Assembly (NCBI GenBank): GCA_934179675.1
Contig: CAKPQS010000002.1
Span: 752-64,751 of the forward strand
Source of the DNA: an uncultured Bacilli bacterium
Lineage (GTDB): Bacteria > Bacillota_I > Bacilli_A > RF39 > UBA660
Direction: 5' to 3'
Length of the DNA: 64,000 bases
In this document: positions 16,541 through 17,164 of the stretch, piece after piece
How the letters are laid out: every line of letters starts with the position of its first letter
Numbering within the stretch: the first letter of the stretch is position 1
Position numbers and translations under genes: made by a program
The notes under the pieces: model-generated
What the model saw: only the letters and a program-made list of their open reading frames with translations
What the model was told of the DNA's origin: nothing
Databases searched by the model: none

Positions 16541-17164
16541 ATGAAAAAAGAAAAAAAAGAAAAAAAAGAAAAAGATTGTGCATGCAACGAAAAATGTGAA
16601 TGTGAAGAATGTCAATGTGATGATTGTCAATGTGATGATTGTCAATGTGATGATTGTAATTGCGATGAATGTTCTTGTGAAGATGTTGTAAATGAAATAA
16701 ATGAACTAAATAAAACAGTTGCGGATCTTGAAGAAAAATTAAAAGTAGCTGAAAACAACTTATTAAAAGAAAAAGCGGAAACAATTAATTATCGCAAAAG
16801 AAAAGATGAAGAAGTTGCCAAAATGTTAAAGTATTGTAATGAAGACTTAATTGAACAAATACTTCCAGTTTTGGATAATTTCGAAAGAGCTGTCAAATTA
16901 GATGACAATGATTTAAATGATGAACTATCAAAATTCTTAAAAGGATTTAAAATGGTATGGTGTAATCTAGAAGAAACATTAAAAAAATTTGGTGTTAAAC
17001 CTATAGATGGAAGCAGTAAACCATTTGATTCTAATTACCATGAAGCAATACTTACAGAAAAAATAGAAGGAGTAGAACCCGGAATAGTAATAGAAGTATT
17101 ACAAAAAGGATATCTCCTAAAAGATAAAGTTATTAGACACGCTAAAGTTAAAGTTAGCGCTTAA
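16541..17164 (+). CDS. grpE: Nucleotide exchange factor GrpE carrying an unusual Cys-rich N-terminal extension.
   Basis: GrpE core (coiled coil plus C-terminal beta domain ...[22 protein letters not shown]). Residues 12-47 are [36 protein letters not shown]. Confidence 0.85.
16610..16684 (+). repeat. In-frame 15-nt tandem repeat (TGTCAATGTGATGAT x3 perfect plus 2 degenerate copies) encoding (CQCDD)n in grpE.
   Basis: Visible directly in the sequence. Confidence 0.85.

Follow-up and report, generated by a model that had tools for sequence, protein, structure and literature searches.

The grpE locus and its cysteine-rich tail

The window analysed here is the whole of a 64,000-nucleotide (nt) stretch of contig CAKPQS010000002.1 (assembly GCA_934179675.1) from an uncultured Bacilli bacterium, and its heat-shock locus contains a grpE gene whose product carries a cysteine (Cys)-rich N-terminal tail. 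The gene is flanked by hrcA and dnaK in the order hrcA-grpE-dnaK (Table 1), with the hrcA stop codon 2 nt ahead of the grpE ATG. The product scores 156 bits against PF01025 (cutoff 25.8) and 142.8 bits against the NCBIfam GrpE equivalog NF010738 (cutoff 137), and matches the PDB structures 4ANI (E=1e-32) and 1DKG (E=7e-22). An earlier reading of the window, made by a model from the letters and their open reading frames (ORFs) and hereafter called the sequence-only reading, had identified the product as GrpE, and the profile matches agree with it and place the gene in an hrcA-grpE-dnaK operon. It had also seen no plausible start codon downstream of the Cys region. Indeed, the ATG has a ribosome-binding site ahead of it, no further in-frame Met occurs before residue 94, within the GrpE domain, and the tail is kept in homologues. 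Upstream of hrcA, two matches to the controlling inverted repeat of chaperone expression (CIRCE) were observed, against 0 expected from shuffled sequences.

The Cys-rich module, C13-C46, is devoid of hydrophobic residues. The sequence-only reading had recognised its presence correctly but not its extent, having counted 13 Cys in residues 12-47 where there are 14 in residues 13-46. Long ORFs of the window have a Cys background of 1.26%, 14 or more Cys among 34 residues would arise with a binomial probability of 3e-18, and the GrpE tail is the sole Cys-rich stretch on a credible ORF in the window. The tail contains a tandem array of the 15-nt unit TGTCAATGTGATGAT, to which Tandem Repeats Finder (TRF) assigns a period of 15, 5.3 copies and 89% match. 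The three perfect in-frame copies that had been claimed are present (at 16610, 16625 and 16640) and are flanked by degenerate copies at 16595 (3 mismatches), 16655 (4) and 16670 (4). The proposed likeness to metallothioneins in composition also stands, and it extends to the Cys regions of 113 homologues: these are 35% Cys, 22% Glu, 9% Asp, 8% Asn and 6% Lys (Asp and Glu together 32%), aromatic residues are essentially absent, and CxC is the dominant Cys-Cys spacing (802 of about 1590). Ahead of the module, the 9-nt repeat that encodes the Lys- and Glu-containing leader holds two A8 runs; slippage or frameshifting would be possible there in principle, and no frameshifted allele occurs among the cluster members listed.

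Table 1. Features of the hrcA-grpE-dnaK region (window coordinates)
Feature	Position	Strand	Remarks
Regulatory region, promoter and two CIRCE-like inverted repeats	15424-15496	+	5' of hrcA
CIRCE-like inverted repeats, two	15424-15450 and 15470-15496	+	≤3 mismatches
Sigma-70 promoter	15438-15465	+	TTGACA-16-TATAAT with TG; 12/12 consensus positions
hrcA, heat-shock repressor	15540-16538	+	PF01628 E=6e-52, PF03444
Ribosome-binding site GAGAGG	16530-16535	+	5 nt 5' of grpE ATG; read from the sequence
grpE	16541-17164	+	207 amino acids; PF01025 residues 51-206, E=8e-46
9-nt in-frame repeat, (AAAAAAGAA)3.3	16544-16573	+	encodes the KKEKKEKKE leader; TRF
Cys-rich acidic metallothionein-like module, C13-C46	16577-16678	+	14 Cys, seven CxC pairs
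15-nt tandem array, unit TGTCAATGTGATGAT = CQCDD	16595-16684	+	perfect copies 16610-16654
Long N-terminal GrpE helix, residues 46-97	16676-16831	+	coiled-coil stalk in the dimer; AlphaFold2
dnaK	17187-18998	+	PF00012 E=2e-251
Terminator-like hairpin, end of hrcA-grpE-dnaK operon	19002-19025	+	3' of dnaK
pepF-like oligoendopeptidase gene (Peptidase_M3)	19044-20843		between dnaK and dnaJ
dnaJ	20806-21927	+	four CxxCxGxG motifs, read from the translation

The location of the module within GrpE is well delimited. In the AlphaFold2 (AF2) model, residues 1-45 have a predicted local distance difference test (pLDDT) score below 50, and the remainder folds as expected of a GrpE, with helices at residues 46-97, 101-119 and 128-149 followed by beta strands at 152-206 (pLDDT about 80-92). 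The first helix, with a pLDDT of about 87-92, starts directly at the last Cys of the module (residue 46). Residue 50 of the window protein aligns with residue 34 of Escherichia coli GrpE and residue 51 with residue 59 of 4ANI. Moreover, the last Cys lies 35-44 residues ahead of the NYRKR motif in 103 of 148 homologues. Therefore, on the alignment, the modelled helix and this distance, the module takes the place of the disordered N-terminal tail of other GrpEs and stops where the coiled coil has its N-terminal tip.

In E. coli, that position is one at which GrpE touches DnaK. The N-terminal tails of E. coli GrpE bind the substrate-binding site of DnaK through residues 17-IIM-19 and promote substrate release (PMC12915176). 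The first hydrophobic residue in the window tail is V49, and the motif ED-[IV]V-NEI follows directly after the last Cys in this clade; from its sequence and place, it could be the counterpart of the E. coli IIM motif. The canonical GrpEs of E. coli (1DKG) and Geobacillus kaustophilus (4ANI) share with the window protein the PF01025 domain, an operon with CIRCE-like repeats, the acidic character of the tail and its position. However, the tails of characterised GrpEs contain essentially no Cys, compared with 41% in the window tail, and where E. coli has its pseudo-substrate motif at residues 17-19, the only candidate in the window clade is the ED-VV-NE or ED-IV-NE that comes after the last Cys.

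The tail should also be set beside the other Cys-rich part of the same chaperone system, the zinc-binding domain of DnaJ with its four CxxCxGxG motifs, from which it differs in motif: the GrpE tail sequence contains no CxxCxGxG. We rejected the idea that the tail compensates for a missing DnaJ zinc finger, because the dnaJ gene of the window retains all four motifs intact (CPDCNGKG, CSVCHGSG, CDNCHGKG and CTTCRGTG). As a pepF-like gene intervenes, dnaJ lies outside the hrcA-grpE-dnaK transcription unit, which ends at the hairpin downstream of dnaK.

Conservation of the tail and a module beyond GrpE

The 207-aa (amino acid) protein is found in identical form on 15 independent contigs from different metagenome studies, always in the hrcA-grpE-dnaK context, which removes the concern of an assembly artefact that the sequence-only reading had raised. 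The variation in copy number that it had anticipated is equally real. Within the 90%-identity cluster of the window GrpE there are forms of 197, 199, 202, 204, 207, 209 and 212 aa, in which 1-5 CQCDD units go together with 2 or 3 KKE units, and several of these length forms are present on 16-46 contigs each. When compared with the window DNA, the 212-aa and 197-aa alleles differ by +15 nt and -30 nt within the array, with all flanking bases identical, so that the steps are exact and in frame. The length of the tail is polymorphic through slippage of the 15-nt unit. Phase variation by frameshift at the 15-nt or 9-nt repeats was rejected: both unit lengths are divisible by 3 and every allele observed keeps the reading frame, and the variation therefore changes the length of the tail and is not an on/off switch.

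Comparison of N-termini across related GrpEs, which the sequence-only reading had proposed as a check, reveals that Cys-rich tails are widespread. About 150 GrpE homologues (31-100% core identity) have 4-26 tail Cys, mostly as CxC pairs, and every one of the 120 best homologues has 4-25 Cys within its first 85 residues. In a search with the core only (residues 48-207), a query that avoids bias from the tail itself, such tails occur in 19 of the 21 core groups defined at 80% identity. Some are also rich in His. The supposed rarity of a Cys-rich GrpE thus holds relative to the literature and not within its clade, where it is common. The repeats, likewise, account for less than had been thought. 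In one cluster of relatives (P0040) the tail is non-repetitive and of fixed length, the protein having 218 aa in 38 of 40 members read (the other two are short fragments). The 15-nt unit explains the recent expansion of the tail and not its origin: judging from these relatives, the Cys-rich tail is older than the repeat, which accounts only for recent growth in this species.

The Cys positions appear to be what is maintained. In a subgroup of 52 sequences, conservation reaches 97.3% in tail Cys columns, 69.3% in the other tail columns and 93.4% in the GrpE core (Mann-Whitney p=8e-6), figures to be read with the caveat that the Cys residues themselves guide this alignment. Such a pattern points to purifying selection on the Cys positions of a tail that is translated and conserved. 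At the same time, sequence comparison indicates that turnover of the tail is fast among the closest relatives of the window GrpE. A homologue with 94% core identity (P0002) keeps the stretch CECKEGKECTC; in the window protein, the EGKECTC piece has been lost and CQCDD expanded. Another (P0038), which has 6 Cys only, is 86% identical over the core query and 92% over the narrower C-terminal core on which the tree is based. There are also Cys-free GrpEs with cores that match those of 4-5-Cys forms at 90-93% identity. Tailed and Cys-free GrpEs interleave in a rough neighbour-joining tree, which argues for repeated gain and loss of the module on GrpE. The cores that carry it reach down to 31-36% identity with the window protein (L123/L137, L095, L153).

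The module is not confined to GrpE. Its core motif is C-x-C-x3-C-x-C-G-C-x-[DE]-G-K-E-C-T-C, and a query with the tail of one GrpE (P0113) retrieved both free-standing proteins of 38-67 aa, such as MEEKKCNCSEDCTCGCQDGKECTCDENCTCGCHDDEEKCNCDKE (P0205, E=1.8e-5), and a ferredoxin with the module at its C-terminus. We scanned metagenomes for the DNA pattern of one exact motif, C-G-C-x-[DE]-G-K-E-C-T-C, and obtained at least 120 stretches; the class proportions are indicative only, given that a single motif was used. Among the matches listed there are at least 60 small proteins (30-78 aa, median 54.5, 27% Cys), at least about 29 N-terminal GrpE fusions and at least about 30 other contexts; in these matches the module is fused to GrpE more often than to any other partner, and to no other component of a chaperone system. 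The free-standing module genes that were examined are independent, with their own ribosome-binding sites, on contigs of 25-27% G+C and not adjoining grpE. The small proteins (30-78 aa, found among the metagenome loci L039-L158 and among P0205-P0212) have the consensus MEEKKCNC(G/S)PDCTCGCQEGKECTC... and come mostly from low-G+C rumen and gut contigs. A word-index search with the N-terminal tail only gave 13 candidates and did not return the GrpEs themselves, which makes it unfit for counting.

The other contexts are diverse. Partners confirmed by Pfam are an ArsR HTH_5 domain (L093), HisRS (L108), a GGDEF response regulator (L040), YlbF/YmcA (L113), DUF1292 (L073) and SIMPL (L043). Ferredoxins of the single-cluster type (P0208, L086, L101, L154), membrane proteins and forms with signal peptides are also found among the matches listed. 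In a CobW/COG0523 GTPase (L148), likewise confirmed by Pfam, the module lies inside a His-rich linker between the cobW and CobW_C domains. An 891-aa TraG-like protein at another metagenome locus (L069) carries the Cys module internally. Altogether, the window tail is best read, on sequence, as a descendant of a widespread Cys-rich module that has been re-expanded locally.

Searches of sequence families and of the literature suggest that both are new. A phmmer search of 1.84 billion representative proteins with the window tail (52 aa) gave 0 matches; as it missed even obvious relatives, presumably through low-complexity and bias filtering, it does not count as a negative result. In Pfam, the best match is Metallothio_5, which remains below threshold (P0209, E=0.024, 15.2 bits against a cutoff of 25), as does Metallothio_Euk for the window tail (E=3), and the tails and modules searched do not match the bacterial SmtA family (Metallothio_Pro). 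PDB matches to an McbG-like pentapeptide protein (E=0.27) were discarded as compositional noise. For the free-standing homologues we also considered SCIFF/ranthipeptide and other Cys-rich precursors of peptides that are made by the ribosome and modified after translation (RiPPs) and rejected them: NCBIfam returned no family at E up to 10, and no radical-SAM genes occur in the module-gene neighbourhoods examined. No Cys-rich GrpE and no description of the core motif were found in the literature searched, and a 2025 review of GrpE-like factors does not mention zinc or metal (PMC12987570). A GrpE with a metallothionein-like domain, and the Cys-module family as such, are apparently undescribed.

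Possible functions of the tail

What could such a tail do on a nucleotide-exchange factor? We consider it moderately probable that it is a metallothionein-like domain that binds metal through its Cys thiolates. This metal-thiolate reading is the best supported one because of the metallothionein-like composition, the existence of free forms, the placement in the His-rich linker of the COG0523 protein and the combination of an ArsR fusion with His-rich GrpE tails. His-rich stretches in COG0523 proteins are taken as a sign of metallochaperone activity (PMC2770081), and the sequence of L148 suggests that the module does the job of a metal-binding stretch there. The Cys pairs, together with Asp/Glu and in some lineages His, would coordinate soft metal ions as thiolate clusters, with Zn(II), Cu(I), Cd(II) and Ni(II) as candidates that are indistinguishable from sequence. 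Since the GrpE dimer is parallel, its two tails, with 28 Cys between them, would stand side by side, adjoining the substrate-binding domain of DnaK.

The minimal model is one of buffering, in which a metal-sequestering domain would be co-expressed with the heat-shock regulon. A dedicated metal sensor would then be unneeded, because the stresses that induce the heat-shock regulon would induce the domain too, an economical arrangement for a small genome. In a stronger model the tail would act as a switch. Its conformation and the stability of the coiled coil would change when metal is loaded, or when thiols are oxidised and metal is released, and the altered state would tune how DnaK exchanges nucleotide and releases substrate. 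Between strains, the number of repeat copies may tune the capacity. We put forward only tentatively, as a possibility rather than an expectation, the combined proposal of a metal- and redox-gated switch at the tip of the GrpE thermosensor coiled coil and of a large, unrecognised family of bacterial metallothioneins, frequent in anaerobes of gut and rumen and recruited repeatedly onto GrpE. If true, the switch would be a third input to the bacterial Hsp70 cycle, beside temperature and nucleotide.

Several observations weigh against metal binding. The tail is very acidic and poor in Lys, unlike classical metallothioneins, and for the several tails and free modules searched, no family in Pfam, NCBIfam or PDB reaches significance. 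Nor does AF2 predict a fold with confidence for either the tail (pLDDT <50) or the free module (mean pLDDT 55, in a model built on a 7-sequence alignment). The window protein itself has lost the CGCxEGKECTC core, and its link to the module runs through close relatives such as P0002. Near the free-standing, ArsR-fusion and COG0523-fusion genes examined there is no consistent metal transporter or regulator; a YbjQ_1 gene close to P0209 and, about 5.6 kb away from P0210, a P-type cation ATPase are isolated cases. Additionally, the number of Cys ranges from 0 to 26 among close relatives, so that a regulatory role cannot rest on a fixed stoichiometry, and the tail is dispensable for the core function of GrpE, given the Cys-free proteins with 90-93% identical cores. 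Finally, we infer metal binding by the module family from sequence and fusion context.

Of the alternatives, the one closest to the metal-thiolate reading is a metal-free thiol redox module, which we regard as rather unlikely. The 14 thiols (28 per dimer) would serve as a sacrificial antioxidant buffer or form disulfides when triggered by oxidants; within or between subunits, such disulfides might lock or inactivate GrpE and leave DnaK as a high-affinity holdase. The two tails of a dimer emerge adjacent to each other at the coiled-coil tip, the hosts are gut and rumen anaerobes, and there is a parallel in vertebrate GrpEL2, in which Cys87 lies upstream of the region that contacts the Hsp70 linker and its disulfide lowers interaction with mitochondrial Hsp70 (reviewed in PMC12987570). 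That Cys, at or near the N-terminal stalk, is proposed to gate the Hsp70 interaction under oxidative stress; GrpEL2, however, uses a single Cys within the stalk and the window tail has 14 in a separate module. CxC pairs would give strained disulfides, and both the ArsR and COG0523 fusions, the latter with its poly-His linker, and the His-enriched GrpE tails favour metal ligation. The two readings also overlap, as zinc-thiolate centres are themselves redox switches. Ligation of iron-sulfur (Fe-S) clusters or iron, which would link the DnaK/GrpE cycle to Fe-S maturation or repair, seems quite improbable to us. Hsp70/GrpE-type systems participate in Fe-S cluster transfer in mitochondria and proteobacteria, and single-cluster ferredoxins and one protein of the YlbF/YmcA family (L113) are among the proteins that carry the module. 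Yet the Cys spacing is CxC or C-G-C and not the typical CxxCxxC...CP, the ferredoxins already have a complete cluster domain to which the module is added, the Cys count varies widely (0-26) in steps of 2, and no Fe-S assembly genes were seen nearby.

The tail might instead be without function, a low-complexity TGT/GAT-rich repeat expanded by slippage in a tolerant disordered region of an AT-rich genome. The three perfect 15-nt copies and their polymorphic number would fit this, as would the wide variation in Cys count, the loss of tails in close relatives and the lack of structure in AF2. We nonetheless find it very improbable: the tails of the P0040 cluster are non-repetitive and of fixed length, conservation of the Cys columns exceeds that of the GrpE core while the intervening residues drift, and the motif is met again on GrpEs with only 31-36% core identity and in at least about 90 non-GrpE contexts, in a window where Cys makes up only 1.26% of long-ORF residues. 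As for an artefact of assembly or annotation, the repeat could have been collapsed or expanded, or translation could truly start downstream of the Cys region. Beyond the general liability of repeats to misassembly, nothing was found in its favour. It is already refuted and can safely be set aside, in view of the identical sequence on 15 contigs, the good ribosome-binding site, the next Met at residue 94 and a tail kept in hundreds of homologues.

Returning to the metallothionein-like reading, the bacterial metallothioneins with functional study are essentially SmtA/BmtA, MymT and the Pseudomonas type, and as of 2020 a biological function had been studied only for SmtA and MymT (PMC7387436). 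The module resembles them in its Cys content (27-41%), lack of aromatic residues, dominance of CxC, small free forms (median 54.5 aa) and modular expansion in copy number. It differs in being far more acidic, in its fusion to a chaperone cofactor and in lacking a significant Pfam metallothionein match, and its metal binding is predicted. With regard to low molecular weight, the GrpE module is a domain of a 207-aa protein, and the free-standing homologues measure 30-78 aa. In concept, the closest analogue is HspA of Helicobacter pylori, a GroES with a C-terminal His/Cys-rich, nickel-binding tail (PMC8779794, PMC5116745). Both are heat-shock co-chaperones with a terminal, lineage-specific extension rich in metal ligands. 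Nonetheless, this is an analogy only, between a GroES and a GrpE, a C-terminus and an N-terminus, a His-dominated nickel tail and a Cys-dominated one, with no sequence relationship. Metallochaperones of the COG0523 and UreG/HypB type have His-rich stretches, and L148 carries the GrpE-type Cys module within such a linker; GrpE differs from these proteins in that it is no GTPase, and it is not known to take part in metal insertion. Hsp33 is a zinc-thiolate chaperone switch. The window tail has neither homology to it nor its CxC...CxxC centre.

A published thioredoxin-metallothionein chimera from Runella (PMC13578184) was considered as a bacterial precedent and rejected, its SmtA-type domain being unrelated to the GrpE-tail module. 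Its TrxA part is 96% identical to enterobacterial TrxA and its metallothionein part 98% identical to Synechococcus SmtA. Such a pattern resembles an expression construct with a Trx tag more than a native gene, and the chimera is a weak precedent for natural metallothionein fusions.

GrpE is among the best-studied co-chaperones, and the demonstration that its N-terminal tail acts on the substrate-binding domain of DnaK is recent. That a conserved domain with 14-26 Cys sits at precisely this position, repeatedly gained and lost in abundant uncultured gut and rumen bacteria, suggests that folding control may be coupled to metal or thiol stress in these organisms, unlike in model organisms. The module also points to a sizeable unannotated family of candidate metallothioneins, a class regarded as rare and poorly characterised in bacteria. 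Moreover, the 15-nt repeat provides a natural allelic series of 1-5 units for dose effects.

The host and other features of the window

The window has a G+C content of about 25%. Related GrpEs in species genomes belong to metagenome-assembled genomes (MAGs) of uncultured Bacilli or 'Tenericutes' from the guts of Hadza humans, reindeer and rabbits; one homologue bears the label 'MAG: Bacilli bacterium', and one GrpE fusion contig (L049) comes from a human gut metagenome. A transfer-messenger RNA (tmRNA), whose tag peptide is GNRNQLAFA, and an RNase P RNA of class B are located at 28295-28629 and 60854-61180. Both are helpful as taxonomic markers and fit a low-G+C Gram-positive or Mollicutes-like host. 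GC skew is positive in every 4-kb bin of the window (1-64000), the cumulative skew rises monotonically and the genes examined are on the + strand; therefore, the window appears to lie on one replichore, with genes oriented along the leading strand.

Directly after dnaJ (21990-24071) lies a gene for a TraG/VirD4-type coupling protein of type IV systems (T4SS-DNA_transf, E=4e-56), whose C-terminal low-complexity region contains an 18-nt tandem repeat (23744-23790). A perfect (ATAC)19.5 microsatellite (2616-2693) is found just downstream of a Mutator-family transposase fragment (1587-1997) and about 105 nt upstream of a DUF285 gene (2800-3924), which encodes a Mycoplasma-type protein with a signal peptide. 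Changes in the number of ATAC units never fuse the leader ORF (2585-2803) to the DUF285 ORF, so that phase variation, if any, would act through the promoter or the 5' untranslated region.

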